A DNA stretch of 64,000 nucleotides. Source: a bacterium. Its GTDB lineage: Bacteria > Patescibacteriota > Minisyncoccia > JAHIHE01 > JAGLIN01. Shown here in pieces: positions 1,134-61,117 of this stretch. Position 1 is the stretch's first letter, and each line of letters begins with the position of its first letter. The notes under the pieces were generated by a model. The model saw only the letters and a list, made by a program, of their open reading frames with translations. It did no database searches and was not told the origin of the DNA. The stretch is taken from positions 5,675 to 69,674 of the forward strand of contig DAOWDU010000011.1 in assembly GCA_030638825.1 (NCBI GenBank). Reading direction: 5' to 3'. The position numbers and the translations under genes are program-made.

Positions 1134-1149
1134 AATAAAAATATCTTAT

Positions 1150-2493: not shown

Positions 2494-2562
2494 TTTTTGT
2501 CTAATACACTAATTATATTAGTCAAAATCGGAGAAAATGTCAAATTATTATTATCTCTTATT

Positions 2563-7190: not shown

Positions 7191-7205
7191 ATTACTATTC
7201 TAATT

Positions 7206-7343
7206 GTCATTGCGAGGAGGCTGAATGAACGAAGTGAGAGAAAAGCCGACGAAGCAATCCCGTAACTATGCAAGATGAACTTAATCACGGGATTGCTTCG
7301 TCGCCTTCTCTTCGCTACGCTCAATCGGGCTTCTCGCAATGAC
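7206..7343. mobile_element. 138-bp MITE-like palindromic element with 11-bp terminal inverted repeats (gtcattgcgag ... ctcgcaatgac)
   Basis: Terminal inverted repeats at 7206-7216 and 7333-7343. Internal inverted repeat gacgaagcaatcccg (7248-7262) / cgggattgcttcgtc (7288-7302). The whole element is an imperfect palindrome. It is intergenic, between the rbfA stop and the nrnA-like start. Confidence 0.6.
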
Positions 7344-7351
7344 AGTTTACT

Positions 7352-10350: not shown

Positions 10351-10514
10351 GAGCGTCATGTAAACATTAAAACATATAAACATTTAAACAAGTTGCGTAA
10401 TAAAGAATTTAATTCAAGAATAAAGTTTAGTGGTTTCTTTTTTATTTTTTACTGAAATCTTTATTCTAAAATTTGTTTATTTGTTTATATGTTTTAATGT
10501 TTATATGAACCCTG

Positions 10515-11562: not shown

Positions 11563-13659
<2,097 letters not shown>

Positions 13660-13700
13660 CTATCATAGCCTCTTTTCTACGGCCGTGAGAAAGAGGCTAT
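13660..13700 (-). terminator. GC-rich hairpin (catagcctcttttctacggccgtgagaaagaggctatg). An identical stem sequence is re-used at 14293-14333.
   Basis: Stem-loop followed by T-rich sequence on the minus strand, immediately after the stop of the 13703-14233 gene. It is a near-identical direct repeat of the hairpin at 14293-14333. Confidence 0.55.
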
Positions 13701-13702
13701 GG

Positions 13703-14233
13703 TTATATTTCTATTTCTTCTATTAAAAATAATTTTATATAAGAGTCAACGGAATACTTTCTTAAGATGAGTTCAGTTTCTTTTTGGACGCTATAGGGAC
13801 AAATCCAGATACTTTGCTGAAGCATTTTATATTCTAAGAGACGAAGTTTTTCTCGCAACAAATCTCGCAGGTGTCTTTTTTCTTCGGGAATGTCAAAAAT
13901 TATCATCTGCCATTTCCCGTCTGGTCTTTTTTGTTTATTTTTTATTTTAAGTTTTGCTTTTAAAACTTTTTCAGCTCCTTTTTTTGTTAGAATAATTCCT
14001 TCATTTTGCTCCAGATTTTTAATCTTAATATAACCATTCTTTTTCAGACGATAAATTAATTGTCTAAATTGTCCCTTTGTCTGTTTTCTTTTATATTGAT
14101 CTTTCAATTCACGGAGAGATGGATAGCAATATTCTTTCATTTTTCTATACGAAAAAATAGTAAAAGTTTTATCTAACTTTTCAGCGTGATTATAAACATC
14201 TAATAAAAATTTATCAGTAATTGGCAGTTTCAT
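13703..14233 (-). CDS. Winged-helix DNA-binding domain fused to a Cas2-like (VapD / PaaX C-terminal fold) domain. Orphan: no cas1 or CRISPR array nearby.
   Basis: The C-terminal block MIIFDIPEEKRHLRDLLREKLRLLEYKMLQQSIWICPY matches the Cas2 pattern (YDI..R.R..L...G.R.Q.SVFEC). The N-terminus has a wHTH pattern. Confidence 0.5.
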   Translation of the reverse strand: MKLPITDKFLLDVYNHAEKLDKTFTIFSYRKMKEYCYPSLRELKDQYKRKQTKGQFRQLIYRLKKNGYIKIKNLEQNEGIILTKKGAEKVLKAKLKIKNKQKRPDGKWQMIIFDIPEEKRHLRDLLREKLRLLEYKMLQQSIWICPYSVQKETELILRKYSVDSYIKLFLIEEIEI

Positions 14234-14292
14234 GGAGCTTATTGAGTTTTAATATTTATCTAATTTTATTATACACTAATTCACGATATAGT

Positions 14293-14333
14293 CATAGCCT
14301 CTTTTCTACGGCCGTAGAAAAGAGGCTATGATT
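14293..14333 (-). terminator. GC-rich hairpin, second copy of the 13660-13700 hairpin, downstream of pilD
   Basis: catagcctcttttctacggccgtagaaaagaggctatg. Confidence 0.5.
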
Positions 14334-14398: not shown

Positions 14399-15244
14399 TT
14401 AATTTATTAAATTCAAATACCACTTAATAATTTTCTCTCCCCAAAACAATCCCACAAAGGTTCCGATTATTAAAAATGGACCGAAGGGAATCATACTGCC
14501 CATTTTTTTCCTGCCAGCTAAAATTAGGAAAATGCCGATTACTGATCCGAGAATAAATGCTAAAAATAAAGCGATTAAAATTACTGGCCAGCCCAAAATC
14601 AGTCCCATTAAAAATGCCAATTTAACATCTCCTCCGCCCATTCCTTTGCCTTTGGTAATGATAATTATTGTGTAGAAAAATCCGCCTGCGAGAATAGCTG
14701 CGATAAACGGATTAAAAATAGTTGTTAAATTTCCAATTTCCAATTTCCAATTTCCAATCAATTCCCAATGATTAAATTTCAAAATTTCAAATAATTTATA
14801 AATGAAGGTTATAATAATCGCAGGATAAATTATTTTGTCTGGAATAATATAGTGTTTTAGGTCATAGACAAAAATAACAATAAAAGTGGAACTGACATAA
14901 AACAGAAATAATAGATAAAGAAATTGAAAATTGAAAATTGAAAATTCACTGAAAATTGAAAATTGAAAATTGAAAATTAGCACAAATAATATCCCTGTCA
15001 TAATTTCTACCAACGGATACTGAATAGAAATTTTATTGCTACAGTATCGGCACTTGCCTTTTAAAAATATAAAGCTAAAAACTGGAATTAAGTCTTGCCA
15101 ATTTAAGATGTGTTTGCAGGATAAGCATCTCGATCTGTCATTTACTATTTTTTCTCCGTTTTCTAATCTATAAATGACCACATTCAAAAAACTGCCGATA
15201 ATCAGGCCGAAGATGAAAATAATTATATTGTATAAAATAAGCAT
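14399..15244 (-). CDS. pilD: Prepilin peptidase (A24 family), carrying two internal heptamer tandem-repeat arrays
   Basis: Zn-binding cysteines CLSC...CRYC, peptidase motif GGGDVKL, and multi-TM topology. Confidence 0.9.
   Translation of the reverse strand: MLILYNIIIFIFGLIIGSFLNVVIYRLENGEKIVNDRSRCLSCKHILNWQDLIPVFSFIFLKGKCRYCSNKISIQYPLVEIMTGILFVLIFNFQFSIFSEFSIFNFQFLYLLFLFYVSSTFIVIFVYDLKHYIIPDKIIYPAIIITFIYKLFEILKFNHWELIGNWKLEIGNLTTIFNPFIAAILAGGFFYTIIIITKGKGMGGGDVKLAFLMGLILGWPVILIALFLAFILGSVIGIFLILAGRKKMGSMIPFGPFLIIGTFVGLFWGEKIIKWYLNLIN
14728..14769. repeat. Heptamer tandem repeat (ttccaat) x4-5 inside pilD
   Basis: Four perfect copies at 14731-14758 plus a degenerate copy. The unit length is not a multiple of 3. 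Confidence 0.85.
14920..14978. repeat. Heptamer tandem repeat (gaaaatt) x7-8 inside pilD, interrupted by cact
   Basis: Three copies at 14926-14946, then cact, then four copies at 14951-14978. Confidence 0.85.
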
Positions 15245-15278
15245 TTGGATTAAACCAGTTTTTAGTTATTCTTAAGTT

Positions 15279-18136: not shown

Positions 18137-18523
18137 TTACATGCTTTTCTTTAATACTTCTCTGATTTTTTCAATAACTTCTGACGGTGTAAAATGAGCC
18201 TTGATTATATAACTGTCAGCCCCTAAATCAAATCCTTTTTCTACATTTTCTTTCTGCCCCAAATTTGTTAAAAGCACGACAGGGATTCCTTTTAGCTCTA
18301 TGTTTTTTTTAATTATTTTCAAAACATCAAAGCCGTCCATTTTTGGCATAACAACATCCAAAAGAATTATATCTGGTTTTTGTTTTTCTAGCATCTTAAT
18401 GCCTATTATTCCATCCTTTGCAGTCGCAACTTCAAAGTTTTCTGATTCTAGTTTAATCTTATACATGTCAGATATGTAAGAATCATCTTCTATTATTAAA
18501 ACCGATGTTTTGTCTTTGATCAT
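18137..18523 (-). CDS. Single-domain response regulator (CheY-like receiver)
   Basis: Receiver residues DD...D (IIEDDSY, LLDVVMP), T/S and K. Confidence 0.85.
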   Translation of the reverse strand: MIKDKTSVLIIEDDSYISDMYKIKLESENFEVATAKDGIIGIKMLEKQKPDIILLDVVMPKMDGFDVLKIIKKNIELKGIPVVLLTNLGQKENVEKGFDLGADSYIIKAHFTPSEVIEKIREVLKKSM

Positions 18524-18524
18524 A

Positions 18525-18599
18525 TTGTTAAATTGTTAAATTGTTAAATTGTTAAATTGTTATGCGTGGCATAGCAATATTTTTATGCCATGCATAACA
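18525..18599. repeat. Octamer tandem repeat (attgttaa) x about 5, then a 15-bp inverted repeat (gttatgcgtggcata / tatgccatgcataac). It lies directly upstream of the response-regulator ATG.
   Basis: The tandem array spans 18525-18563, and the inverted repeat spans 18559-18573 / 18585-18599. The 21-mer atgcataacaatttaacaat recurs at 45370-45395. Confidence 0.7.
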
Positions 18600-18623
18600 A
18601 TTTAACAATGTAGCAATTTAATT

Positions 18624-21532: not shown

Positions 21533-22078
21533 TTATTCTTCGTTTCTCACCTTAACTTTCATTGAAGCGTTCTTTTCTATTTTCGGAAGTTTAACCGTAA
21601 GAATGCCGTTTTTGATTGTCGCTTCAACTCCTTCTGTTTTAATATCGCTTGGCAAAATAATTGAACGCGAAAAATTCCCCCAAAAACATTCTTGATAATA
21701 ATAATCGTCAGCTACGACATTGTCAGGATTTTCTCTCTTTCCTTTGATAGTCACCATATCGCTCGTAACGGAAATATCTAAGTTTTCAGGTCGGACGCCG
21801 CCAATAATTGATTTTACAACAATGAGTTCTTTTGTTTTGTAAACATCTACTGTCAACTGGCCTTCTTCGTTAATATCATCTTCTTTTCCTGAAAGCCATT
21901 CCTTGTCAATTTTTTTGTTTTCAGAATTATTCTCGTCAGTGTCTCCGTTGTCCGCTTCATTCTCGTTTGTTGTTTCTGTTTCTTTTTCTTCATCAGAATC
22001 AGAACTAACAATTCTGTTTAAAAATGATTTTTTTTGTTTTGTCATATTATTCATATTAACATTTAAATATATAAACAT
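21533..22078 (-). CDS. Hsp20/alpha-crystallin small heat-shock protein with an acidic N-terminal extension
   Basis: Alpha-crystallin domain: LTVDVYKTKELIVVKSIIGGVRPENLDISV ... GILTVKLPK. Confidence 0.75.
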   Translation of the reverse strand: MFIYLNVNMNNMTKQKKSFLNRIVSSDSDEEKETETTNENEADNGDTDENNSENKKIDKEWLSGKEDDINEEGQLTVDVYKTKELIVVKSIIGGVRPENLDISVTSDMVTIKGKRENPDNVVADDYYYQECFWGNFSRSIILPSDIKTEGVEATIKNGILTVKLPKIEKNASMKVKVRNEE

Positions 22079-22164
22079 TTAAACACAAATTTTAAAATAT
22101 AAAAAGCGACTGCTTGTTTATATGTTTACATGTTTACACGATTACATTATACCATTTTTAAAAA

Positions 22165-25100
22165 TTACAACAAGGACTTTATTTTTTCTTTCAGTTTTTT
22201 TATTTTTTTTTCGCTTTCCATAAATTTTTCTCTTTCTTTTTCAACAATTTCCCGCGGAGCATTGCCGACAAAATCATCATTGCCAAGTTTTGTTTTTATC
22301 TGGAAAATATATTTTTCTATATTTTCTATTTTTTTTTCTAAATTCTTTTTTTCTTTTTCTTTGTCAATTATTCCCTCTAAATAAATTTCAATATCGCCAA
22401 CAACTAAATAAACCGCGTCTTTGATTTTATCGTCCTTTTCTTTTATTTCTAATTTATCAATTCCAGTTCTGAGATTTTTGATTAAATGCGCTTGTGATTT
22501 GATAAATTCTTTTTTATTTCCAGCGTAAATTACAGCTTCAATTTTTTTACCTGGCTCAACCTTATATTCCGCGCGCGCGTTGCGAATGGCTTTAATAATA
22601 TTTTGAATTATTTCAAAATCGCGGGCTGTTGTGATTGTAGGGAACGGGCATGCCTGTTCCCTACAATCACGGTCAGCCCACTTTTCCACCATCAGTAAAT
22701 TTTCACTGTCTAAATTCTTCCAAATTTCTTCTGTCACAAACGGAATAAAAGGGTGAAATAAAATTAAAACTTGTTTTAAAATATAATTTAAAATCTCATT
22801 TTTATTTTTTTCAATTTTAGAAATTTCAATATACCAGTCAGCGAAATCGTTCCAGGTAAATTCTTTTATTTTTTCGCCAGCTTGCGAAAATTTATAATTA
22901 TTCAAATCATCTGTGACTTCTTTAGTTAAATTGTTTAGATTATTTAAGATCCATTTATCTGCTAATGTGGCATCAGAAGCTGGGCTTCCAATTGGAAGCC
23001 CAGCTTCTTTAGTATTATCAATATTCATAATAATATACCGTGAAACATTCCACAACTTATTCACAAAATTCCGATACCCTTCAACTTTTTCTTCATACAT
23101 CTTAATGTCATTTCCTGGACTGGATCCGATAATCATACTCAATCTCAAAGCGTCCGTTCCGTATTTCTCGATCATCTCGATCGGATCAATCCCATTTCCA
23201 AGAGACTTGCTCATTTTCTTTCCCTGCTTATCTCGTACCATTCCATGCAAATAAACATTTTCAAACGGGACTTCGCCAAGCGTATAAGTCGTCATCAAAA
23301 TCATTCTTGCCACCCAAAAAAACAAAATATCATAACCCGTTTCCATCACGCTTGTTGGATGAAACTTTTTCAAATCTGGACTATTCGCAACCCAATCTTC
23401 AAAAGTTTTATATTTCTCGTGATCCTGATTTAATAAAGTTGAAAATGTCCAAAGACCTGAGGAGAACCAGGTGTCTAGAGTGTCGGTGTCCTGTGTCCAG
23501 TTTTTTCCTTCTGGTGGATTAGTCCCAATATATATTTCTTGATTTTTATATTTCTTACCTTTCGGTATCATAGTATATACTATGGAACTATTATCAAATT
23601 TATTATTTAATTCATATTTCCATCCCGCTTGCCACTCTTTTGTTTTTCTCCAATCTTCATTAATCGCTTGCTCCCAAGTTCTATTTTTTAAAATTACATC
23701 TAGCGCTAACTGTGGAGCTTTGTGCGCAACAATAGCAATTTTTTTACCTTGATATTTATCTATTAAATCATTAAGAAAATCCCTGATTCTTTTTTCAACA
23801 TCTTTATAGCTCTCGCCCTTTGGAAATGGTTTGTCTATTACATTTTTTTCTATCACCAAAATTTCAGACGCACCAGCTTGTGTTAAATCTCCATAATCAC
23901 ACTCACGCAATCTTTCATCCTGAATGATTTTTACACCTCTATCACTAAACGTTAGGCTTGCAGAATCAACTGCTCGTTTCAAATCTGAACAAAATACAAT
24001 ATCAAATTTCTCATTTTCAATTGTTTTCTTTAAATCTTTTGACTGCTGAATTCCTAATTTTGATAATTTTACATCATAATGACCAGACGCTTTATTCTTC
24101 TCATTATCAATCGTCGTCCCATGAACAAAATAAGTAATATCAATTCCTGATTCCTGATTCCTGATTCCTGATTCATTTTTATACCAAACCGGAATCCGAT
24201 GCCCAAACCATAACTGACGGGAAATACACCAATCATGCAAATTTTCCATCCAATTATGATATGTTTTTTCAAATCTTTCAGGAATGATTTCAATTTTCTT
24301 GTCATTTTTTTCATCAGCTTTATTCACCACTTCCAAAGCAATTTCCTTCAAGGACTTATTTTGAAAATATTTATTTCCTCCAATTGTAATTTTCTTGTCA
24401 ACGGCGACAAACCATTGTTTTGATGGCAAAGGTTCAATCGGGGTATCACAGCGGTAGCAAATGCTTAAACTTTGATCTACTTCTTCAACTTTTTCAATTA
24501 AATTATTTTTCTCAAAATACTGGACTATTTTTTCTCGCGCTTCTAAAACTGTTAGTCCTTCATAATCTTTTCCTGCGTTCTCATTCATCTTCCCGTCTTC
24601 GCCAATAATTTTTATTTTCTCCAAATCATTTTTCTCTGCCATTTCCCAGTCAGTCATACTGTGCGCGGGAGTTACTCCTAATGCCCCAGTTCCAAACTTT
24701 ATTTCAACTTCTCTATCTGAAATAATTTTAATTTTATGTTTGCCATTTCCTAAATTTATTTCAAAAACTTTGCCAATATACTTTTTATATCTCTCATCTT
24801 TTGGATTAACAGCAACCGCTGTATCGCCTAACTTTGTTTCTGGTCTTGTTGTCGCGATTGTGATTGGAAAGTCTTTGTCATATTTAAAATAATACAGTTT
24901 CCCTTTTTGCTCTTCGTGTTCAACTTCATCATCCGCTAAAGTTGATTCGCATCTTGGGCACCAGTTGACAATTCTGTCTCCTCTATATATTAATTTATCA
25001 TTGAACATTTTTGTAAATACTTCCCTCACTGCGCGTGATAATCCATCATCAAGTGTGTATCTTTCCCTTGACCAATCGCAAGAAGAACCCATTTTTCTGG

Positions 25101-25512
25101 TTTGATTTTTAATTGTACTTTTTGAATTTTCTACATATTCATTTACTCGCTCCAGAAATTTCTCTCTGCCTAAATCATATTTCGTCTTCCCCTCTTTTGC
25201 GATTATCTTTTCTACTTTCGTCTGTGTCGCGATTGAAGCGTGGTCTGTTCCAGGAAGCCATAAAGTATTTTTTCCTTTCATTCTATTATACCTAATCATC
25301 AAATCCTGATAAGCAAGCATTGAAGCATGTCCTAAATGCAAAACTCCCGTCGCATTCGGCGGCGGCATTGAGATTGAAAAGTTTTGTAGGGAACAGGTAT
25401 GCCTGTTCCCTACAAAACTATTCGGATTAAAAAAACCAGACTTTTCCCAAGTCTTATAAATTTTATCTTCCACCTCTTGAGGATCATATGCTTTTGGAAT
25501 TTCTTTTTTCAT
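22165..25512 (-). CDS. valS: Valyl-tRNA synthetase with inserted domains
   Basis: HIGH (PNATGVLHLGHA), KMSKS and the anticodon-binding/coiled-coil C-terminus. 1115 aa, longer than typical ValRS because of insertions. Confidence 0.95.
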   Translation of the reverse strand: MKKEIPKAYDPQEVEDKIYKTWEKSGFFNPNSFVGNRHTCSLQNFSISMPPPNATGVLHLGHASMLAYQDLMIRYNRMKGKNTLWLPGTDHASIATQTKVEKIIAKEGKTKYDLGREKFLERVNEYVENSKSTIKNQTRKMGSSCDWSRERYTLDDGLSRAVREVFTKMFNDKLIYRGDRIVNWCPRCESTLADDEVEHEEQKGKLYYFKYDKDFPITIATTRPETKLGDTAVAVNPKDERYKKYIGKVFEINLGNGKHKIKIISDREVEIKFGTGALGVTPAHSMTDWEMAEKNDLEKIKIIGEDGKMNENAGKDYEGLTVLEAREKIVQYFEKNNLIEKVEEVDQSLSICYRCDTPIEPLPSKQWFVAVDKKITIGGNKYFQNKSLKEIALEVVNKADEKNDKKIEIIPERFEKTYHNWMENLHDWCISRQLWFGHRIPVWYKNESGIRNQESGIDITYFVHGTTIDNEKNKASGHYDVKLSKLGIQQSKDLKKTIENEKFDIVFCSDLKRAVDSASLTFSDRGVKIIQDERLRECDYGDLTQAGASEILVIEKNVIDKPFPKGESYKDVEKRIRDFLNDLIDKYQGKKIAIVAHKAPQLALDVILKNRTWEQAINEDWRKTKEWQAGWKYELNNKFDNSSIVYTMIPKGKKYKNQEIYIGTNPPEGKNWTQDTDTLDTWFSSGLWTFSTLLNQDHEKYKTFEDWVANSPDLKKFHPTSVMETGYDILFFWVARMILMTTYTLGEVPFENVYLHGMVRDKQGKKMSKSLGNGIDPIEMIEKYGTDALRLSMIIGSSPGNDIKMYEEKVEGYRNFVNKLWNVSRYIIMNIDNTKEAGLPIGSPASDATLADKWILNNLNNLTKEVTDDLNNYKFSQAGEKIKEFTWNDFADWYIEISKIEKNKNEILNYILKQVLILFHPFIPFVTEEIWKNLDSENLLMVEKWADRDCREQACPFPTITTARDFEIIQNIIKAIRNARAEYKVEPGKKIEAVIYAGNKKEFIKSQAHLIKNLRTGIDKLEIKEKDDKIKDAVYLVVGDIEIYLEGIIDKEKEKKNLEKKIENIEKYIFQIKTKLGNDDFVGNAPREIVEKEREKFMESEKKIKKLKEKIKSLL
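22631..22670. repeat. Family-A palindrome (gtgattGTAGGGAACgGGCATGCCTGTTCCCTACaatcac), in frame in valS
   Basis: 40-bp palindrome with one central mismatch. It encodes ...ACPFPTITT... in valS. Confidence 0.8.
22975..23008. repeat. Family-B palindrome (aGAAGCTGGGCTTCCAATTGGAAGCCCAGCTTCt), in frame in valS
   Basis: Perfect 34-bp palindrome. It encodes EAGLPIGSPAS. Confidence 0.8.
24143..24175. repeat. Heptamer tandem repeat (attcctg) x4 inside valS
   Basis: Encodes ESGIRNQESGI at the start of the ValRS insertion. Confidence 0.8.
25380..25419. repeat. Family-A palindrome (agttttGTAGGGAACAGGtATGCCTGTTCCCTACaaaact), in frame near the valS N-terminus
   Basis: It encodes the VGNRHTCSLQ insertion between the conserved N-terminal segment and the HIGH region. 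Confidence 0.8.
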
Positions 25513-25585
25513 AAGAATAGTCTAACATAGATTTGAGAATAAATAAAACATATAAGCATTTAAATTTCGTTTGTGTGTTTGTGTG

Positions 25586-44383: not shown

Positions 44384-44623
44384 AGATTTTTAAAAATTAA
44401 AATATTTTTATTTCTTCTCTTCCACCTCATACTCCACATCTTCTAAATATTCTTTCTTCTTCCCTAATTTCTTTCTACCCACAACTTTATCATAAAGATA
44501 AGAAGCAACCGCCAAAAAAGCCGCTTTTTTTATTTTTCTTTTTTTGAGATTTATTTTTTCTTTTAGTTTTTTAAACATAAAAATATATTGCTAAATTTCT
44601 TGGAGTACAAATTAGCTAAATTT

Positions 44624-44693
44624 GTCATAGTGAGCTTGTCGAACTATGATAAATTTAGCGAGTCTACCCATCCTTCGACAAGCTCAGGATGAC
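44624..44693. repeat. Pair of GTCAT-type hairpin elements in opposite orientation (gtcatagtgagcttgtcgaactatgat ... catccttcgacaagctcaggatgac)
   Basis: Same family as 5091-5116 and 6180-6204. The 27-mer cccatccttcgacaagctcaggatgac is shared with 6178-6204. Confidence 0.7.
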
Positions 44694-44717
44694 GATTTAA
44701 TTTAGCAATAGAACAAT

Positions 44718-47195: not shown

Positions 47196-47339
47196 AATTC
47201 ATTTCTTACGCCGCTTAAAACAAATAAATAATAAGCCGAATTTTGTTTTCTGATATAAAATCAAAATGATAATCATCTATCTAGCCATACTATTGCTAGT
47301 ATGATCAAGCGAGCTACTTTTTTCCCAACTAACTTACAA

Positions 47340-47693
47340 CTTACAACTTACAATTTTAATATTGTTATTTGTTATGAGTTATAGGTTATAAGTTAGTCAG
47401 GATTTGCTCTTGCACCAGGCAGGGTTTACCATCATTTGCTGTCACCAGCAAGGAAAGAGCGTAGATTTAAATTTATAAAAATTCAAATCATCGCCCAACT
47501 TTTCACCTTTTATCATGTATAACATGATTAGTATAGTCTCTGTGGCACTTTCCCTATCCTAAAAAAATTAGAACGGTTGCCGTTAGCAACTGCCTGCTTC
47601 CAGGTTATTTTAAAGTAATCTGGGGTGTTCGGACTTTCCTCTCCTATTCTTTAAAAGAACAAAAGCGATTATCTAATTTACCATTTTAAGCTC
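47340..47693 (-). ncRNA. rnpB: RNase P RNA (bacterial type), ends approximate
   Basis: The non-coding region is GC-richer than its surroundings. The minus strand carries GAGGAAAGUCCGAAC (P4 5' strand), GGGAAAGUGCCACAGAGA, AAGGUGAAAAG, GGUAAACCCUGCCUGG and GCAAGAGCAAAU in canonical order. An extended -10 TGTATAAT lies at 47700-47707 (minus strand). Confidence 0.6.
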
Positions 47694-47751
47694 TTTCATT
47701 ATACAAAAAACAATCACTTTGTCAATCTAAATTTTGTGCTATAATACTCTT

Positions 47752-49809
47752 ATGGAAAATATTTTAGAAAGTTTAAATAAGAGACAGCAAAAGGCCGTTA
47801 CCGCGACGGACGGGCCGGTTTTGATAATTGCGGGACCGGGATCCGGGAAGACGAAAGTTTTAACGCATCGCATCGCTTATATTATAAAAAATAAGGCGGT
47901 CAGTCCGACTAATATTCTTGCGGTAACTTTTACGAATAAAGCTGCCCAGGAAATGAAAAGCAGGGTAGGCGTGTTGCTTGAGAAGATGGTTTATGCAAAT
48001 AATTCTAACTTTTATAAAAAATCATTTGACGATGACGCCCCTCACCCCAACCCTCTCCCGCGGGGAGAGGGAGTTTCCAGTTTCCAGTTTCCTGTCATTG
48101 GCACTTTTCATAGCATTTGTGTGAGAATTTTGCGGCAGGAGGCGGAGTTGATCGGCTATAAAAAAGGATTTACTATTTATGATGACAGTGACCAGCAAGC
48201 AATAATTAAAAAGATTATGAATAATTTACAGATAAGTCCAGAGCAGTTTAATCCGCGGGCGGTCTTGTCTCATATTTCTAACGCTAAAAATGAATTGAAA
48301 AGTCCGAAAGATTTTAGTGATATCGCCGACGGTTATTTTCAGGAACAGGTTAGTATTGTTTATAATGCGTATCAGAAAAAATTAAAAGATAATAATTCTT
48401 TGGATTTTGACGATTTAATTATGCAGACAATTTTATTGTTTTTAGACAAGCCGGAGATTTTGCGAAAATACCAAGATAAATTCCGTTATGTGATGGTTGA
48501 TGAATATCAAGACACGAATTACGCGCAATACAAACTGGTTGATTTATTAAGCAAAACTCATCGGAATTTATGCGTTGTTGGCGATGACTGGCAGAGTATT
48601 TACAAATGGCGCGGCGCGGACATTAGAAATATTTTGGATTTTGAGAAAAATTATTCTGAAGCGGAAGTTATTTTGCTAGAACAAAATTATCGATCAACGC
48701 AAACAATTTTAGACGCCTCATATCAAATAATTTCCCGCAATGTCAATCGCAAGGAGAAAAAGCTTTGGAGTGAAAAAGAGGCGGGCGAGCCGATCGTTAT
48801 TTACGAAGCGGCTGACGAAAAAGGAGAAGCAGAATTTGTTATTTCGGAAATTGCCAGATTAACAAATAATAAAATAAATTTAAAAGACATTGCGATTTTA
48901 TATCGCACAAACGCTCAATCAAGATCAATAGAGGAAGCATTTTTGCAATATGGCGTTCCCTATAAAATCGTCGGCGGTATAAAATTTTATCTGCGAAAAG
49001 AGGTAAAAGACATTATCGCCTATCTGCGGCTTATTCAAAATCCAAATGACACAGCGAGTCTGGAAAGAATTATCAATATTCCTAAAAGAGATATTGGACA
49101 GGTGACTTTCAGAAAGATAATGGCAGAAATGGAAAAGAGTGGAAACGATGTTATTGAAGCATTGTTTAATTGTAATTGTGAAAATATTCCAGAAGGCAAG
49201 ATTAAGAAAATAAAAAGCTTTGCGGAAATTATTCTAAAGTGCCAAGATAAAATTGACAAAATTAAAATTTCTGAATTGCTTACTTATCTTTTGAAAAGCA
49301 TTAATTATGAAAAGCATATCAAAGATGGAACTGATGATGGAGAAAAAAAATGGGAAAATGTGAAAGAGCTTTTTAGCGCTGTGGAAAAATACGATAATCT
49401 GCCGGCGAAAGAAAATTTGAAAATATTTTTAGAAGAAATCGCGCTGGCGACGGATTTAGATAAGATAGACGATTCGCAGGATGCCGTAACTTTAATGACG
49501 CTCCATTCTGCTAAGGGCCTTGAGTTCAGCGCTGTTTTTATAATTGGGATGGAAGAAGGATTGCTTCCTCATTCCAGAAGCATTCAGGATCCTTCTGAGA
49601 TGGAAGAGGAAAGAAGATTGTGTTATGTCGGAATTACAAGAGCGAAAAAGAAAGCGTATCTTATCTTCGCGAGAACCAGAAAAATTTACGGCTCAACGCA
49701 AGCAAATATGCCCTCCCGTTTCATTTCCGACATCCCAGAAGAGTTAGCGGAATTTAAGAGGCAGGAGTATAGTTATTTGGGAGAGGATGAAGTTGTTGAA
49801 GTTGATTAA
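47752..49809 (+). CDS. pcrA: ATP-dependent DNA helicase PcrA/UvrD. The start is reassigned to the ATG at 47752.
   Basis: LNKRQQKAV...GPVLIIAGPGSGKTKVLTHRIAYII (motif I), motifs II-VI, and the 2B domain. The ORF-track start at 47734 overlaps the TGCTATAAT -10 box. Confidence 0.9.
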   Translation: MENILESLNKRQQKAVTATDGPVLIIAGPGSGKTKVLTHRIAYIIKNKAVSPTNILAVTFTNKAAQEMKSRVGVLLEKMVYANNSNFYKKSFDDDAPHPNPLPRGEGVSSFQFPVIGTFHSICVRILRQEAELIGYKKGFTIYDDSDQQAIIKKIMNNLQISPEQFNPRAVLSHISNAKNELKSPKDFSDIADGYFQEQVSIVYNAYQKKLKDNNSLDFDDLIMQTILLFLDKPEILRKYQDKFRYVMVDEYQDTNYAQYKLVDLLSKTHRNLCVVGDDWQSIYKWRGADIRNILDFEKNYSEAEVILLEQNYRSTQTILDASYQIISRNVNRKEKKLWSEKEAGEPIVIYEAADEKGEAEFVISEIARLTNNKINLKDIAILYRTNAQSRSIEEAFLQYGVPYKIVGGIKFYLRKEVKDIIAYLRLIQNPNDTASLERIINIPKRDIGQVTFRKIMAEMEKSGNDVIEALFNCNCENIPEGKIKKIKSFAEIILKCQDKIDKIKISELLTYLLKSINYEKHIKDGTDDGEKKWENVKELFSAVEKYDNLPAKENLKIFLEEIALATDLDKIDDSQDAVTLMTLHSAKGLEFSAVFIIGMEEGLLPHSRSIQDPSEMEEERRLCYVGITRAKKKAYLIFARTRKIYGSTQANMPSRFISDIPEELAEFKRQEYSYLGEDEVVEVD
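48037..48092. repeat. In-frame palindromic element (gcccctcaccccaaCCCTCTCCCGCGGGGAGAGGGag) plus a 3x heptamer repeat (agtttcc), inside pcrA
   Basis: Perfect 21-bp palindrome at 48051-48071. The region encodes PHPNPLPRGEGVSSFQFPV, inserted between helicase motifs. Confidence 0.75.
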
Positions 49810-49827
49810 ACTGTCATTAATACCATT

Positions 49828-50688
49828 ATGTTTTCTAAAACCGAAATTAAAAAATTACTTGAAGAAAAAGATTTGAAAGTTCTGAAAAGGTTAGGACAGA
49901 ATTTTTTGATTGATGAAAAAGTTTTAAATGAAATAATTAGAGCGTCGGAACTTAATAAAGATGATTTTATTTTGGAAATTGGTCCAGGTTTGGGAACGCT
50001 TACCGATGAACTTGTTAAAAAATGTGGAACAGTTGTGGCGATAGAGAAAGATAAAAAAATGGCAGAGTTGATTTTTAAAGAAGCTGAGCTTCCTATAGGA
50101 AGCTCAGCTTCTCGCGCTTTTTTAAAAATCATCAACGATGATATTTTAAAAATAAATTTAAACAAGCTTATTGAAGAATATTCTAAAAACAAAAAATATA
50201 AATTGATTTCTAATATTCCATATTACATCACTTCGCCTGTGATAAAATTATTTTTAGAAAATAGCATCCAGCCGGAGCTGATTGTTTTGCTTGTTCAAAA
50301 AGAAGTAGCGGAAAGGATCTGCGCGAAGCCGGGAAAATTAAGTATTTTAGCTTTGAGCGTCCAAATATACGGCGAGCCGGAGATTGTTAGCTATGTTGAT
50401 AAAGCCGCGTTTTATCCCGAGCCAAAAGTTGATTCGGCGATTTTAAAAATCAAAAACATTAAAAAAGAATTCTCTGAAGAGTATTACAAAAAACTTTTCA
50501 AAATTATAAAAATCGGGTTTTCGTCTAAAAGAAAAAAGCTGGCAAATAATTTATCAGCTGGATTGTATCTTACCAAAAAAGAAAGTGAAGATATTTTGCA
50601 ACAATCAAACATAAATCTAAACACTCGCGCGCAGGAATTGAGTTTGGAGGAGTGGGATAAATTAGTAAAATTGACGCTGTTGAAATAA
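49828..50688 (+). CDS. rsmA: 16S rRNA (adenine1518/1519-N6)-dimethyltransferase
   Basis: LGQNFLIDEKVLNEII and LEIGPGLGTLT SAM-binding motifs. Confidence 0.9.
   Translation: MFSKTEIKKLLEEKDLKVLKRLGQNFLIDEKVLNEIIRASELNKDDFILEIGPGLGTLTDELVKKCGTVVAIEKDKKMAELIFKEAELPIGSSASRAFLKIINDDILKINLNKLIEEYSKNKKYKLISNIPYYITSPVIKLFLENSIQPELIVLLVQKEVAERICAKPGKLSILALSVQIYGEPEIVSYVDKAAFYPEPKVDSAILKIKNIKKEFSEEYYKKLFKIIKIGFSSKRKKLANNLSAGLYLTKKESEDILQQSNINLNTRAQELSLEEWDKLVKLTLLK
50079..50112. repeat. Family-B palindrome (aGAAGCTGAGCTTCCTATAGGAAGCTCAGCTTCt), in frame in rsmA
   Basis: Perfect 34-bp palindrome. It encodes EAELPIGSSAS. It differs from the valS copy by compensated changes (G to A paired with C to T, AATT versus TATA centre). 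Confidence 0.8.
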
Positions 50689-50730
50689 TTTGGTAAAATA
50701 AAAATAGTTAAAAAAGATAATAAAAATATT

Positions 50731-51018
50731 ATGGTCTTGAAAAAGAATTTGAAAAAGAAAAAGCAAGCTAAAATCAAAGAAACAACTATTGATGATTTGG
50801 CGATAATGATTGGAAAGGGATTTAAACATGTAGAAGGACGGATAAATTCTCTTGAACGAGAACAGGAAAAAACAAAAGAAGAAATAAAAGAATTTAGAAG
50901 AGAAAATTATTTAGAGCATGAAGAAATGAAAATACGCTTTGATAATGTCGCTCATCGTTTTGAATTGGTAGAATTGCAAAAAAGAGTTGGGGTTTTAGAA
51001 GGACGAGCGATGGTTTAG
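50731..51018 (+). CDS. Small coiled-coil protein, paralog of the gene at 33802-34158
   Basis: Shared N-terminal block TIDDLAIMIGKGF. Confidence 0.45.
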   Translation: MVLKKNLKKKKQAKIKETTIDDLAIMIGKGFKHVEGRINSLEREQEKTKEEIKEFRRENYLEHEEMKIRFDNVAHRFELVELQKRVGVLEGRAMV

Positions 51019-51037
51019 GGTTTTTTGAAGGAAAATT

Positions 51038-51084
51038 TGAAACAGGATTTGTCCCTTGACAAACCCTGTTTTTTGTTATACGAT
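51038..51084 (+). promoter_or_regulatory. Near-consensus sigma70 promoter (TTGACA-17-TACGAT) with a palindromic operator-like inverted repeat centred on the -35
   Basis: gaaacaggatttgtccc TTGACA aaccctgtttt. Inverted-repeat arms: aaacagg/cctgttt and tttgtc/gacaaa. Confidence 0.45.
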
Positions 51085-57595: not shown

Positions 57596-58156
57596 ATGAC
57601 AATAGATATTAATAAAATTGGCAGTGGGGGGTTTATGAATCCAGATAAAATTGTGGAAGAACTCAATATTAAAAACGGGATGTTCGTTGCTGATTTTGGC
57701 TGTGGCGCTGGATATTTTACAATCCCAATCGCTAAAATAATAAAAAACAGCGGCAAAATTTACGCAATAGATGTTTTAAATGAATCGTTAGAAAATGTTT
57801 TAAGCAAAGCAAAATTATATGATTTGCTTAATATTAAAACTGTTCGGGCTAATATAGAAATAATTGGCGGATCAAAAATAGAAAGCGGTTCCGTTGATTT
57901 GGTAATTCTCGCCAATATACTTTTTCAATGCAATGATCATAGTTCGGTTTTGAACGAAGCTAAGAGAATCTTGAAGAATAATGGCAGTGTTGTTGTTGTA
58001 GATTGGATTCCCAAAAAAGTTCCTTTAGGACCAAAATATGAGCATTGCCTCAGCGAGGAAACTATAAAAAAACTTGCTATAAAGAATGGACTGAAAGTTG
58101 TCAGAAAAATAGACGCTGGAAATCAGCATTATGGGATGGTGTTGAAAAACATATAA
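57596..58156 (+). CDS. Class I SAM-dependent methyltransferase
   Basis: Motif I VADFGCGAGYFTIPIA. Confidence 0.8.
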   Translation: MTIDINKIGSGGFMNPDKIVEELNIKNGMFVADFGCGAGYFTIPIAKIIKNSGKIYAIDVLNESLENVLSKAKLYDLLNIKTVRANIEIIGGSKIESGSVDLVILANILFQCNDHSSVLNEAKRILKNNGSVVVVDWIPKKVPLGPKYEHCLSEETIKKLAIKNGLKVVRKIDAGNQHYGMVLKNI

Positions 58157-58216
58157 ACATATAAACATATAAACATATAAACATATAAACATATAAACAT
58201 ATAAACATATAAACAT
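58151..58216. repeat. Octamer tandem repeat (atataaac) x8.25, overlapping the methyltransferase stop codon
   Basis: Perfect copies from 58151. The unit is the core of the recurrent intergenic ACATATAAACA motif. Confidence 0.9.
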
Positions 58217-58263
58217 GGGGGCTTCAAAGGTTTGTTTAAATGTTTACATGCTTATATGTTTAA

Positions 58264-59646
58264 ATGATCTTTATGACTAAGCAAAAAATATTTTTAATTG
58301 GTTTTATACTTTCCGTCTTATCAATAATCGCCTGGTATATAGTTGGCTGTCCTTTGGCGGAGAAATGTCCGTTTGTGAGATTTGAAAAAGAAGAAGCTCC
58401 AAAGGTAATTCTGACATTTGTCGGTCCTACGGACAATGCCAGCGACTGGAACGCAATTTTTTCTAAGTTTAACGCTTATAAAAAAAGACCGGAAAATGGT
58501 TTTTTGGATGTGATTATAAAATACGAAAGGGTGTGCAATCCAATCTGCGATCAGGATGATTACGAAGATATGGTAAGAGAAAGGCAATATGAAGACGAGG
58601 GACCGAATATCTTTATGGCTTATAGCTCCTGGATTCCAAGACACAAGGATAAGCTTTTGCCTGCGCCAAAAGGAATGATGAATCTGGCGGAATTTGAGAA
58701 CACTTTTGCGCAAGTGACAAAAAATGACTTAACCGATGAAAAGGGAAATATTTACGCGCTTCCGTTTTATGTGGATACTTTGGCCTTGTATTATGATAAC
58801 GATGCTTTTTTAAATGAGAATTTAATAAAGCCTCCTATAAATTGGGATGAATTTGAGGAGTATGTGGAAAAATTAACTATTGTTGATGAAGATGGAAATT
58901 TTATAAGAGCTGGAGCTGCTTTTGGAGGCGGAAGCAATATAAATAGAGGCCAAGATATTTTAATGCTTCTAATAATGCAGAATAATATCAGCAGTAAGAC
59001 AGTAGGAAATTTGGTTTCATTTAATAATAAAGGTAGTCCTGCAGCGATAAATTTTTATACTGACTTTACCAATCCTAAAAAGAGATTTTATACCTGGAAT
59101 GAAAATCAAATGTATTCCATAGACGCTTTTACTCAGAAGAAAGCTGCGATGATGATTAATTATTCTCATCATATTGATAATGTAATTGAGAAAACGAGTA
59201 ATAATTTGAATTTTAAAATTGCTCCAATTCCTCAATTGGATAGAAATAGTAAAGTTAATTATGCTAGTTACTGGGTTCCTGTTGTTCCCAAAAAAGCTCC
59301 TTGCGGAAAAGAAGCAAAAACGAACGCGAATTGCTACAGTTTAGCTTGGGAATTTTTAGATTTTGCGGCTAAAAAACAAAATGCCAAATTATATTTAGAT
59401 TCCACAAAAAAACCTGCTGCTAATTTAGAACTTGCGAAAGAGCAATTTACAGATTTTAATGATCAGCGAAGCGTGTTTGCCGGACAGGTGTTTACGGCTA
59501 AAAGTTGGGAACATCCAGATAGCTCATTGAGCGATAAAATTTTAGTGAAAATGATAGATTCTATAATAACAACTAATCAAGAATTCAAAAAAAGTATTTT
59601 CGAAGCAATGGCTGTGGCTGCTAGATATGTTGATAGTTTGAATTAG
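58264..59646 (+). CDS. Extracellular solute-binding protein (family 1, sugar-type ABC substrate-binding protein). Orphan: no permease genes adjacent.
   Basis: N-terminal TM/lipobox-like anchor (IVGC), LPFYVDTLALYYDNDAF and PPINWDEF family-1 SBP blocks. Confidence 0.55.
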   Translation: MIFMTKQKIFLIGFILSVLSIIAWYIVGCPLAEKCPFVRFEKEEAPKVILTFVGPTDNASDWNAIFSKFNAYKKRPENGFLDVIIKYERVCNPICDQDDYEDMVRERQYEDEGPNIFMAYSSWIPRHKDKLLPAPKGMMNLAEFENTFAQVTKNDLTDEKGNIYALPFYVDTLALYYDNDAFLNENLIKPPINWDEFEEYVEKLTIVDEDGNFIRAGAAFGGGSNINRGQDILMLLIMQNNISSKTVGNLVSFNNKGSPAAINFYTDFTNPKKRFYTWNENQMYSIDAFTQKKAAMMINYSHHIDNVIEKTSNNLNFKIAPIPQLDRNSKVNYASYWVPVVPKKAPCGKEAKTNANCYSLAWEFLDFAAKKQNAKLYLDSTKKPAANLELAKEQFTDFNDQRSVFAGQVFTAKSWEHPDSSLSDKILVKMIDSIITTNQEFKKSIFEAMAVAARYVDSLN

Positions 59647-59857: not shown

Positions 59858-60011
59858 AAAGTCATATAAACATTTAAGCATATAAGCATTTAAATATGTT
59901 GAGACTTCAGCTTTTTGTTTATATGTTTAGGTGTTTACATGTTTACATGATGTTATTCTAATAAAAAAATGTTAATTCGTCAATTCCAATATTCAAAATA
60001 TTCAATTATTT

Positions 60012-61016
60012 TTACTTTTTACTGTGAAACTTCTTGTGAATATTTTTCAAATGCTTGTCTGTGATGTGCGTGTAAATTTGAGTTGTCGTGATACTGGAAT
60101 GGCCGAGCATTGACTGGACGCTTCTAATGTCAGCGCCGTTCATTAGTAAATCTGTCGCAAAACTGTGCCGCAAAGTATGGGGCGTCACTTTTTTTACGAT
60201 GCCCGCTTTGACGGCATATTTTTCTACTATTCTTTGAATAGTTCTTACTGTCAGTCGTAAAGATTGATTTGCTTTTGCTTTATTTTTCTTACTGTTTTTT
60301 TTGCTTTTATTTTCATTATTGCAATAGCCACCGCCTTTTTTTCTAAAATTTATAAATAACGCAGGGTCAATATCTTTCCTTTTTTTAAGATAATCTATTA
60401 TGGCATCTTTTGCTGAGTCGGAAATAAAAACAAGACGGATTTTTCCTCCCTTTCCCCTTATAGAAAACTCGCCGCTTTTGAGATTTATGTTTTCCCTGTT
60501 TAAATTAGCAAGTTCCGAGACGCGAAGTCCAGTGGAAAATAGCAATTCTAAAATCGCTTTATCGCGCAGGCGATGGAAATATTGAAGGCGACATTCCGGA
60601 ATGTCGCCTTCAATATTTCCATCGCCTGTTTTCACAGATTCTAATAATCTTTTTATCTCATCCGCTTCTAAAAATTCTACTTCTCGCTCTTGCGTTTTTC
60701 CAAGCTCCACTTTTTCACTTGCCAATGTTTCAATATCTTGTTTTGCTAAATATTTCAAAAAACCGCGCAAGGCGATTATATAATAATCCTGTGTTGCTTT
60801 TTTTAAATTTTTTTCTTTACGATCTTTATATCTATTGAGATATAACCTGAATTTCTTTACCAATTCACCTGTAATATCCTCTGGATTTCTGATCATTGCC
60901 CAATCTAAAAACCGATTTAAATAATGATCGTAGTTTCTAATTGTCAGCTGTGATCTATTTTTCTCAATCTCCAAATATTCAAGAAATTCAATTTTTAATT
61001 CTTTTATTTTTTCCAT
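60012..61016 (-). CDS. Tyrosine recombinase (XerC/XerD / phage-integrase family) with a Lys/Asn-rich insertion
   Basis: The C-terminal catalytic block HTLRHSFATDLLMNGADIRSVQSMLGHSSITTTQIYTH (R...HxxR...Y). XerD-like N-terminal core-binding domain. Confidence 0.8.
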   Translation of the reverse strand: MEKIKELKIEFLEYLEIEKNRSQLTIRNYDHYLNRFLDWAMIRNPEDITGELVKKFRLYLNRYKDRKEKNLKKATQDYYIIALRGFLKYLAKQDIETLASEKVELGKTQEREVEFLEADEIKRLLESVKTGDGNIEGDIPECRLQYFHRLRDKAILELLFSTGLRVSELANLNRENINLKSGEFSIRGKGGKIRLVFISDSAKDAIIDYLKKRKDIDPALFINFRKKGGGYCNNENKSKKNSKKNKAKANQSLRLTVRTIQRIVEKYAVKAGIVKKVTPHTLRHSFATDLLMNGADIRSVQSMLGHSSITTTQIYTHITDKHLKNIHKKFHSKK

Positions 61017-61117
61017 AATTTTATTTTACGACATAAAACTGAATTTGTCTATTTTCTTTATGTCTATTTTCTTTATTTGCAAAAATATAAAATTATGTTA
61101 TTCTTTTTAAGTAGTTT

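Follow-up and report, generated by a model that had tools for sequence, protein, structure and literature searches.

We analyzed a 64-kb stretch of DNA (the window; GC content, 34%) from a genome of the Patescibacteria, or candidate phyla radiation (CPR), and concentrated on a GC-rich palindrome that is translated as part of a helicase gene. The names carried by homologues put the organism among Paceibacteria-like members of the Patescibacteria/CPR. The host open reading frame (ORF) lies at 47752 to 49809 on the plus strand and encodes a UvrD/PcrA-type helicase of 685 amino acids, counted from the ATG at 47752 (100% identity to P0001). The product matched Pfam families PF00580 (UvrD-helicase; E = 4.9e-94) and PF13361 (UvrD_C; E = 1.9e-83), and phmmer aligned it with PcrA of G. 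stearothermophilus (PDB 1pjr) at E = 3.6e-186. We found that positions 48037 to 48092 read gCCCCTCACCCCAACCCTCTCCCgcgGGGAGAGGGAG followed by three copies of AGTTTCC, exactly as a first-pass annotation of this DNA had described. As that annotation had also stated, the stretch is read in frame, as A96-PHPNPLPRGEG-VSSFQFP114 (that is, APHPNPLPRGEG-VSSFQFP), between conserved helicase motifs Ia (TFTNKAA) and Ib (GTFHS). The composition had been called foreign to the host, and in 30-nt windows we found that 48030 to 48080 is the longest stretch of the window that holds at least 70% GC. L001, another assembly of this organism (ENA ERZ23498405; 99.9% identity), contains the element with the same sequence, and its difference from the window at 50544 to 51054 is only a scaffold gap of Ns.

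To identify the palindrome, we compared it with a published pattern, 5'-CCCTCNCCC N3-6 GGGNGAGGG N3 GGGNGAGGG-3', which defines the TMECO motif of Escherichia coli (Holder 2015, PMC4666352). We found that the minus strand at 48039 to 48071 fits this pattern exactly in a regular-expression search, as CCCTCTCCC-CGC-GGGAGAGGG-TTG-GGGTGAGGG. The exact match makes the PcrA palindrome, as judged from its sequence, a solo copy of the pan-bacterial BoxC/PIT/TMECO intrastrand triplex motif (TM) and thus a known kind of repeat that is found across bacterial phyla. The remark in the first-pass annotation that REP-like sequences (repetitive extragenic palindromes) of this sort occur in distant bacteria was therefore sound.

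The TM is a 36-mer, CCCCTCACCCCAACCCTCTCCCGCGGGGAGAGGGAG on the plus strand, that occupies 48038 to 48073 and has its match to the pattern on the minus strand. Following the block structure of Holder 2015, a third-strand block, CCCTCACCC, lies at 48039 to 48047 on the plus strand and repeats the first hairpin arm in direct orientation. The hairpin itself, CCCTCTCCC-gcg-GGGAGAGGG, lies at 48051 to 48071 on the plus strand and has a 9-bp stem and a 3-nt loop (ΔG, −10.6 kcal/mol as DNA). The G-rich strand, which is the strand modeled as triplex forming, is the minus strand and hence the template strand of the gene. This strand (GGGAGAGGGTTGGGGTGAGGGG) also holds four G-tracts and is a potential G-quadruplex former; published biophysics of the TMECO motif favors a triplex over a G-quadruplex for the isolated strand, and circular dichroism and nuclear magnetic resonance on E. 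coli oligonucleotides showed a stable triplex in vitro (Holder 2015, PMC4666352). The element begins with GCCCCTCACC and ends with GGGAGAGGGAG, and we found no GTAG or CGTC tag at its ends. Its 21-nt hairpin core is beyond what chance would yield, with no match in 100 dinucleotide-preserving shuffles. As a DNA fold the element has moderate stability (ΔG, −10.6/−11.3 kcal/mol; z, −1.2 to −2.0). We rejected hairpin stability as an explanation, since these z scores are unremarkable by themselves. The 36-mer is free of stop codons in five of its six reading frames, which encode peptides rich in Pro, Ser, Gly, and Glu.

A lineage-specific insertion in PcrA

To determine whether the translated element belongs to the helicase family, we aligned the 60 closest homologues. 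We found that almost every sequence has a length and content of its own in the segment from motif Ia to motif Ib and that none of the other homologues has PHPNPLPRGEG, so that the window protein (P0001) is its sole carrier. By alignment, codon comparison, and an AlphaFold2 model, the variable loop comprises approximately residues 87 to 110 (48010 to 48081, plus strand), between a helix at 62 to 83 (motif Ia) and a strand at 115 to 117 (motif Ib). This stretch is extra relative to the shortest close orthologue, that of contig L002 (VYANNSN-LSFPV). L002 PcrA (P0012) is 82% identical to the window protein, and its loop, aat aat tca aat tta tca ttt ccc gtt (NNSNLSFPV), does not contain the element. 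The loop of L006 (P0002; 89% identity) is (AATACCA)x5 and has no GC-rich hairpin. In L004 (P0008) the loop is CCCCCCCGCCCCCTTTgctAAAGGGGGAG, in L008 (P0013) and L009 (P0006) it consists of three and two hairpin units of the L004 type, respectively, and in L010 (P0011) it is TCCGCCcaaGGCGGA plus CCAGCCtcgGGCTGG. Thus, L004, L008, and L009 carry one to three C-run/G-run hairpins, all in frame, with a sequence unlike that of the TM; the stems differ from that of the window and yet pair (CCCTCTCCC/GGGAGAGGG in the window versus CCCCCTTT/AAAGGGGG in the relatives). Loop length and content change in nearly every relative of 80 to 89% identity, and the neighboring FQFP/IQYP residues are semiconserved. 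In agreement with the first-pass annotation, we concluded that the element is an insertion specific to this lineage and not a conserved part of the helicase family.

That annotation had also suggested modeling the structure to see whether the insert is a surface loop in domain 1B or 2B. In a split phmmer match, we found that residues 77 to 115 stand where PcrA 1pjr has the 8 residues 81 to 88, between motifs Ia and Ib, rather than in either of those domains. We take this site to be the end of the first 1A segment. An AlphaFold2 model built with 83 homologues had a mean pLDDT of 80, and residues 84 to 110 fell below 50 without secondary structure. The insert is thus predicted to sit in a disordered, length-tolerant surface loop at the Ia/Ib junction and not in domain 1B or 2B.

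The palindrome is followed directly by a perfect heptamer tandem repeat, (AGTTTCC)x3, at 48072 to 48092 on the plus strand (Tandem Repeats Finder: period 7, 3.0 copies, 100% matches), which is translated as SSFQFP. We found degenerate GTTTCC heptamers, in one to three units, after the unrelated hairpins of L004 (GTTTCTGGTTTCCAATTTCC), L008 (AGTTTTCAGTTTCC), and L009 (GAGTTTCC); in L006 the AATACCA repeats stand in their place. The elements in RecG and KsgA (see below) have no heptamers. Since heptamers occur at the PcrA site with other hairpins and are absent beside the RecG and KsgA elements, we assign them to the PcrA target-site region rather than to the mobile element. They may have arisen by slippage beside a replication obstacle and would then be a local by-product. 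Two other genes of the window hold perfect heptamer runs, so that the run in PcrA is not unique in the genome: ATTCCTG x4.6 in the valyl-tRNA synthetase (ValRS) gene at 24143 to 24174 (ESGIRNQESGI), and AATTTCC x4.4 (14728 to 14758) and AAATTGA x8.7 (14921 to 14978) in the ORF at 14402 to 15265.

The heptamers are followed in turn by TGTCAT (48093 to 48098, plus strand), which had been proposed to link the element to a GTCAT superfamily of repeats. We found that the region at 48093 reads TGTCATTGGCAC and has no inverted partner, and that cct-gtc-att encodes Pro-Val-Ile leading into motif Ib. These residues are the conserved P114-V115-I116, of which P114 is invariant in the 83 homologues; in relatives the corresponding codons are gtt atc, att atc, or gtc atc. 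The window contains more TGTCAT than expected (48 copies, against an expectation of 26.5 ± 5.6), and a genuine TGTCAT-tagged element is present at 7205 to 7344, palindromic over approximately 140 nt and with inverted termini TGTCATTGCGAG...CTCGCAATGACA. The hexamer at 48093 lacks the TGTCATTGCGAG continuation as well as the partner and consists of the codons of the conserved PVI, and we rejected it as a repeat tag. The stretch at 44619 to 44698 belongs to the same kind of palindromic element. A further palindrome of this type lies in frame in the RecG gene of L004 (6206 to 8425), at the site where L002 has a TM.

The motif in other genes and its link to DUF559

We found a near-identical copy of the element in a second helicase gene. 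L002, whose PcrA has no element, carries GACGAT-GCCCCTCACCCCAACTCTCTCCCGCAGGGAGAGGGAG in RecG between motifs Ia and Ib, in the same frame as in the window (DDAPHPNSLPQGEG), and 41 of 43 positions are identical to the window element. At this site the RecG of L010 has nothing. Deletions of 84, 104, and 109 nt (L002 3195 to 3273, 3675 to 3774, and 6678 to 6786) distinguish L002 from L003, a nearly identical contig of a sister sample. The deletions remove conserved RecG and KsgA sequence, and two of them begin at repeat hotspots; they could reflect instability or misassembly, and we did not use them as evidence.

In a metagenome scan, the exact 36-mer was present in 75 contigs with GC contents of 0.34 to 0.72. 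Open frames are meaningful on the low-GC contigs among them because stop codons are frequent in noncoding frames there. On three such contigs (L140, L146, and L149; 34 to 41% GC) the 36-mer lies in frame in a gene: TilS in L140 (TilS_C, 6.6e-13), an MnmC-like methyltransferase in L146 (4.5e-22), where two inverted copies surround an 8-mer tandem repeat, and FemAB in L149 (6e-47). On L160 there is no gene at the 36-mer, which is intergenic. Related TMs likewise occupy in-frame positions in the genes for PriA (L109) and UDP-galactopyranose mutase (L121), and across these host genes the TM is read in three different frames. The FemAB gene of L149, a 41%-GC contig, carries at least four in-frame repeat insertions, namely, the TM, a CHSEFISES...ILKQVQND palindrome, an ATKAAFANAAF palindrome, and a KSQ repeat.

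To survey the motif more widely, we scanned GTDB genomes with a relaxed pattern, CCTCACCCC-N0-6-CTCTCCC-N2-6-GGGAGAG. This gave at least 120 loci and at least 138 matches, with more than 10 phyla among the matches listed; the hosts include Pseudomonas, Xanthomonas, Enterobacteriaceae, Acinetobacter, Rhizobiales, Chloroflexota, Acidobacteriota, Planctomycetota, Verrucomicrobiota, cyanobacteria, Omnitrophota, and others. Among these listed matches the blocks are conserved, the first spacer is mostly GGCC, AACC, AGCC, or GACC, and the flanks are unrelated. The general TM pattern is likewise abundant in viral contigs, by a scan that gives a lower bound. A Citrobacter copy pointed us to E. coli, where a motif of the same build (CCCTCTCCCtgtGGGAGAGGGtcgGGGTGAGGG) lies between ppiC and ilvC. 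Previous work described 23 TMECO copies in E. coli K-12, always intergenic, and found neither promoter nor terminator activity for PIT/TMECO in E. coli (Holder 2015, PMC4666352). The same study reported that TM-containing loci are more rearranged between strains and discussed slippage, and it cites earlier work on BoxC (Hoyne/Maher 2000 and BoxC papers of the 1990s). In the literature library that we searched, we found no publication on TMs inside genes, on TMs in CPR bacteria, or on a link between DUF559 and these repeats, which is not proof of novelty. The context described here, a TM in frame inside an essential helicase of a CPR bacterium, is new.

We found that several TM loci contain a gene of the DUF559 (YcjD-like) family between two TMs. 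In a Gastranaerophilales metagenome-assembled genome (MAG; L109), the PriA gene (1774 to 4404) contains an in-frame block, immediately ahead of the Walker A motif, that is made up of a TM, a DUF559 domain (PF04480; 3.8e-37), and a second, inverted TM. A betaproteobacterial MAG (L022) has a TM-DUF559-TM unit at approximately 2100 to 2650 inside the methionyl-tRNA synthetase (MetRS) gene, between the core and the C-terminal tRNA-binding domain. Among the loci from our TM scans, seven contain a DUF559 ORF, and a DUF559 hidden Markov model (HMM) detected one additional fragment; all are directly flanked by TMs, on both sides in at least 6 of 7. The usual order, in most of these loci, is hairpin-GGGTGAGGG, the DUF559 ORF, and then CCCTCACCC-hairpin, so that the TMs are inverted. 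The hairpins vary in stem and loop (CCCTCTCCC, TCCTCTCCC, and CCTTCTCCC).

To obtain a sample picked for DUF559 and not for TMs, we retrieved 15 viral-contig loci with a four-sequence DUF559 alignment. All 8 of the closest loci (6 distinct) are bracketed by inverted TMs or TM-like hairpins, and the 7 distant loci are without bracketing TMs. TMs also encode the C-terminal tails of at least 35 of the best 120 DUF559 homologues, as PSPRPSP, NPHPNPLPQAGEG, SPHPNPLPKG, or LTPTLSPKAERE, and the tails with "PHPNPLPxGEG" have the same peptide and frame as the window PcrA. This set of TM-tailed proteins includes those of "Candidatus Levybacteria" and other Patescibacteria, and full TM-DUF559-TM units are present in CPR DNA of Levybacteria (L344) and Patescibacteria (L346). 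In L344, 9 nt separate CCCTCTCCCtttgatGGGAGAGGGaaaaGGGAGAGGG from the DUF559 ORF that follows it, and the stop codon of this ORF falls within the loop of CCCCTCACCCCgaCCCTCTCCCttgaGGGAGAGGG. The ycjD gene of E. coli K-12 (a DUF559 gene) adjoins fabI and has on its 3' side first a degenerate TM, next a duplicate fragment of the ycjD 3' end, and then an intact TMECO; we saw no TM upstream of this ycjD. BoxC was reportedly first noted next to fabI/envM. The copy in PcrA is a solo TM and not a full unit. By analogy, the TM-DUF559-TM architecture suggests a partnership like that of REPs and RAYTs. Altogether, the essential-gene hosts that we observed for TMs or TM units are PcrA, RecG, PriA, MetRS, TilS, and FemAB.

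Other palindromes and repeats of the window

The gene next to PcrA, KsgA, has a loop that is likewise occupied by different elements in different relatives. We found nothing in this loop in L002, a 34-nt perfect palindrome in the window (EAELPIGSSAS), a different palindrome in L005, L006, and L010 (KATFANVAFG), and in L008 the same C-run/G-run type of hairpin as in the PcrA loop of L008 (IPPAPFAKGG). Either few loops are permissive, or the elements target existing hairpins; both fit the reoccupation of the same loops.

The 34-nt palindrome AGAAGCTGRGCTTCCWA|TWGGAAGCYCAGCTTCT occurs twice in the window, at 22975 to 23008 in ValRS and at 50079 to 50112 in KsgA/RsmA. The two copies differ at two symmetric position pairs and are in frame as EA(E/G)LPIGS(S/P)AS, with an open antisense frame. 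As both are nevertheless perfect, palindromy is maintained or regenerated. A 62-nt perfect palindrome without a loop lies at 60567 to 60628, inside a XerC/D-type integrase gene (60015 to 61025, minus strand), and its core, GAAGGCGACATTC..GAATGTCGCCTTC, is the element found in the KsgA loop of L005, L006, and L010. GTAG-headed perfect palindromes, (T)GTAGGGAACAGGC..GCCTGTTCCCTAC(A), are present at 5185 to 5220, 22631 to 22670, and 25380 to 25419 of the window and at 1569 to 1596 of L008. All of them are in frame in genes (an AP_endonuc_2 protein, ValRS twice, and the PcrA of the relative) and encode VGNRHACSL-like peptides; apart from their place within genes, they resemble classical REPs with a GTAG tag. 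Three more palindromes, of 56, 72, and 31 nt (232 to 287, 575 to 646, and 918 to 948), are in frame in a single beta-helix protein ORF (3 to 1145, minus strand), and a palindrome family, TCATAGCCTCTTTTCTACGG|CCGTAGAAAAGAGGCTATGA, has two apparently intergenic copies at 13655 to 13710 and 14292 to 14331. The ValRS gene (22168 to 25521, minus strand; 1,118 amino acids) holds three palindromes and one heptamer run and in addition has a His_Phos_1 domain (E = 1.9e-30) at residues 467 to 604, within the synthetase core.

Intergenic hairpins whose arms are inverted tandem arrays of 7- to 8-mers lie at 18519 to 18622, 58147 to 58266, 47323 to 47402, 10356 to 10508, 22048 to 22147, and 59863 to 59949. 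Examples are (ATTGTTAA)x4.9 ... (TAACAATT)x3.4 and (AAACATAT)x8.8 ... (TGTTTAAA)x4.2, and one of these hairpins lies just upstream of PcrA. The GC skew changes sign at approximately 47 to 48 kb, at its cumulative minimum, which coincides with a 555-nt intergenic region (47196 to 47751) between divergent genes; this switch could reflect gene-strand bias or a replication origin.

Origin and meaning of the PcrA copy

We consider it probable that the PcrA palindrome is a solo BoxC/PIT/TMECO TM carried in frame as a tolerated passenger in the disordered loop, with a TM-DUF559-TM composite unit as its likely source. According to this model, a solo TM with the blocks CCCTCACCC, CCCTCTCCC, loop, and GGGAGAGGG would have come to rest, in frame and free of stops, in the Ia/Ib loop of PcrA. 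It would be translated as the Pro/Gly-rich linker APHPNPLPRGEG, most likely doing nothing for the helicase. The TM would be a selfish or neutral passenger, filtered by selection only for compatibility with the frame, which five of its six frames would allow. The heptamer run and the variability of the loop would accord with the slippage during replication and the instability that have been described near TMs. Solo TMs would probably derive from the small composite unit, which CPR genomes also contain and in which a YcjD-like DUF559 gene stands between two inverted TMs, and solo TMs may relate to DUF559 as REPs and REPINs relate to RAYT transposases.

Of the other explanations, a local origin de novo is unlikely. 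Here, hairpin and heptamers would have been made in situ by slippage or template switching, without any dispersed element. The site has the features that this requires, namely, a hypervariable loop with tandem heptamers (AGTTTCC x3 in the window and AATACCA x5 in L006) and duplicated hairpins in L008 and L009, in a genome full of perfect palindromes and of 7- to 8-mer tandem repeats within genes. However, the 75 metagenome contigs hold identical copies of the 36-mer in unrelated genes and organisms, the RecG copy of L002 agrees with the window element at 41 of 43 positions and lies in the same frame, and the three-block pattern is conserved across phyla, so that the independent making of this exact sequence is implausible. 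It is slightly less likely still that the element is selected for a function of the nucleic acid, for example, in pausing transcription or translation, in tuning PcrA expression through an mRNA hairpin or pyrimidine triplex, or as a programmed hotspot of recombination or variation. That different hairpins stand at the same site in several relatives with their stems kept (CCCTCTCCC/GGGAGAGGG versus CCCCCTTT/AAAGGGGG), and that TMs also occur in RecG and PriA, helicases that act on unusual DNA structures, would fit such a function. Yet the close relatives L002 and L006 manage without any hairpin, the same element is found in genes for TilS, FemAB, a methyltransferase, and a mutase, and the fold z scores are modest; in E. 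coli, neither promoter or terminator activity nor an in vivo triplex footprint was seen (Holder 2015).

We regard as quite improbable the idea that the insert is an adaptive Pro/Gly-rich loop of PcrA making contacts with protein or DNA. The insert is in frame and translated, and its FQFP/IQYP neighbors are semiconserved, but its conservation fails even at an overall identity of 89%, its sequence is set by the DNA motif, the same peptide occurs in unrelated proteins and in DUF559 tails, and the insert is predicted to be disordered. An assembly artifact, in which the contig would have taken up a GC-rich read of a different organism, is hardly credible. The foreign composition and the presence of the same 36-mer in high-GC organisms of similar environments would be expected of a chimera, but the element is present in two assemblies (the window and L001), in exact frame and with orthologous sequence on both sides, and relatives have comparable in-frame elements in independent assemblies from JGI, ENA, and NCBI.

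Several observations weigh against a passenger TM derived from a composite unit. The 64-kb window holds only one TM copy. We recognized no target-site duplication at the PcrA, RecG, or KsgA sites, where the flanks are too diverged, and found no clean pair of empty and filled sites; the PcrA loop, compared with that of the closest relative, is a replacement and not a simple 36-nt insertion. Previous work saw no in vivo triplex footprint and no link between TMs and known mobile elements (Holder 2015, PMC4666352). An HMM search (hmmsearch) found no DUF559 in the window or in approximately 120 kb of close relatives, so that activity in this lineage would be putative. TMs are present in 5,426 of 5,426 E. 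coli genomes and ycjD in 3,378 of them (62%), so that DUF559 is not needed to keep TMs. The adjacency of TMs and DUF559 would be equally expected if DUF559 were a homing gene that targets preexisting TMs. Finally, a function of the loop or of the nucleic acid structure retains some small probability on sequence grounds.

More tentatively, and with less conviction than we attach to the passenger model, we raise the possibility that BoxC/TMs are the hairpin ends or cognate repeats of widespread, unrecognized mini mobile elements built around a YcjD-like DUF559 endonuclease of the Vsr fold. These would form a second system of the REP/RAYT kind. Their ends can be read as flexible linkers of Pro, Ser, Gly, and Glu in five of six frames, which would allow whole elements or solo ends to settle in essential genes of gene-dense genomes, such as those of CPR bacteria.

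The PcrA element is like the published BoxC/PIT/TMECO motifs in its three-block sequence of about 33 to 37 nt, its G/C richness in any host, its conserved stems with variable loops, its occurrence as solo copies or inverted pairs, and its local variability between close relatives. It differs in position and range. The E. coli K-12 copies are always intergenic, whereas the PcrA copy is translated within an essential gene of a 34%-GC CPR genome; the published TMECO pattern was described in proteobacterial genomes, whereas we found it in many phyla, in CPR, and in viral contigs; and the published account has no link to a mobile element, whereas here inverted TMs bracket DUF559 genes. REPs and REPINs with their RAYT (IS200/IS605-like Y1) transposases (PMC3116915, PMC3333891, PMC3733652) show a similar arrangement of short GC-rich hairpins, present as singlets and inverted doublets, in copies that far outnumber the gene, with a single-copy nuclease gene between inverted copies of its repeat. 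Unlike REPs, which are extragenic by definition, the TM is found within genes and has no GTAG/CGTC tag, and its partner is DUF559, with a Vsr-like PD-(D/E)xK fold, and not a Y1 HUH transposase; mobilization by DUF559 would be hypothetical. Rickettsia palindromic elements (RPEs), as summarized in a review (PMC10969869), are likewise in-frame palindromes in unrelated housekeeping genes of a small, dense genome that encode fold-compatible peptides. In contrast to the TM, which has 36 nt, is pan-bacterial, and is open in five frames, RPEs are described there as about 100 to 150 bp long, genus specific, and endowed with a conserved peptide of their own in each family. A transposable element of the miniature inverted-repeat type (MITE) has terminal inverted repeats and a target-site duplication, while the PcrA element is itself a hairpin, and no duplication was recognized in its diverged flanks. 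The small dispersed repeats (SDRs) of cyanobacteria, described by Elhai and colleagues in 2008, are reportedly about 21 to 27 nt long, may be nested in each other, and in some cases are found inside genes; they would thus resemble TMs as very small dispersed repeats that can occur in genes, but they belong to different sequence families. We know of no nuclease partner for SDRs.

BoxC/PIT/TMECO repeats have been known since the 1990s, and their origin and function are unexplained. Our data show that TMs are not confined to intergenic DNA or to Proteobacteria but also occur in AT-rich, gene-dense CPR genomes, in loops of essential enzymes that are predicted to be disordered. Different mini-palindromes reoccupy a few permissive loops in sister lineages, an RPE-like phenomenon in a new phylum that yields variation in protein length. 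For annotators, the motif explains the recurrent "PHPNPLPxGEG," "PSPQPSPxGRG," and "LPLPAGEGWGEG" peptides in many predicted proteins. The TM-DUF559-TM architecture, in turn, leads to a testable hypothesis on what may move BoxC and on the role that DUF559/YcjD may have.

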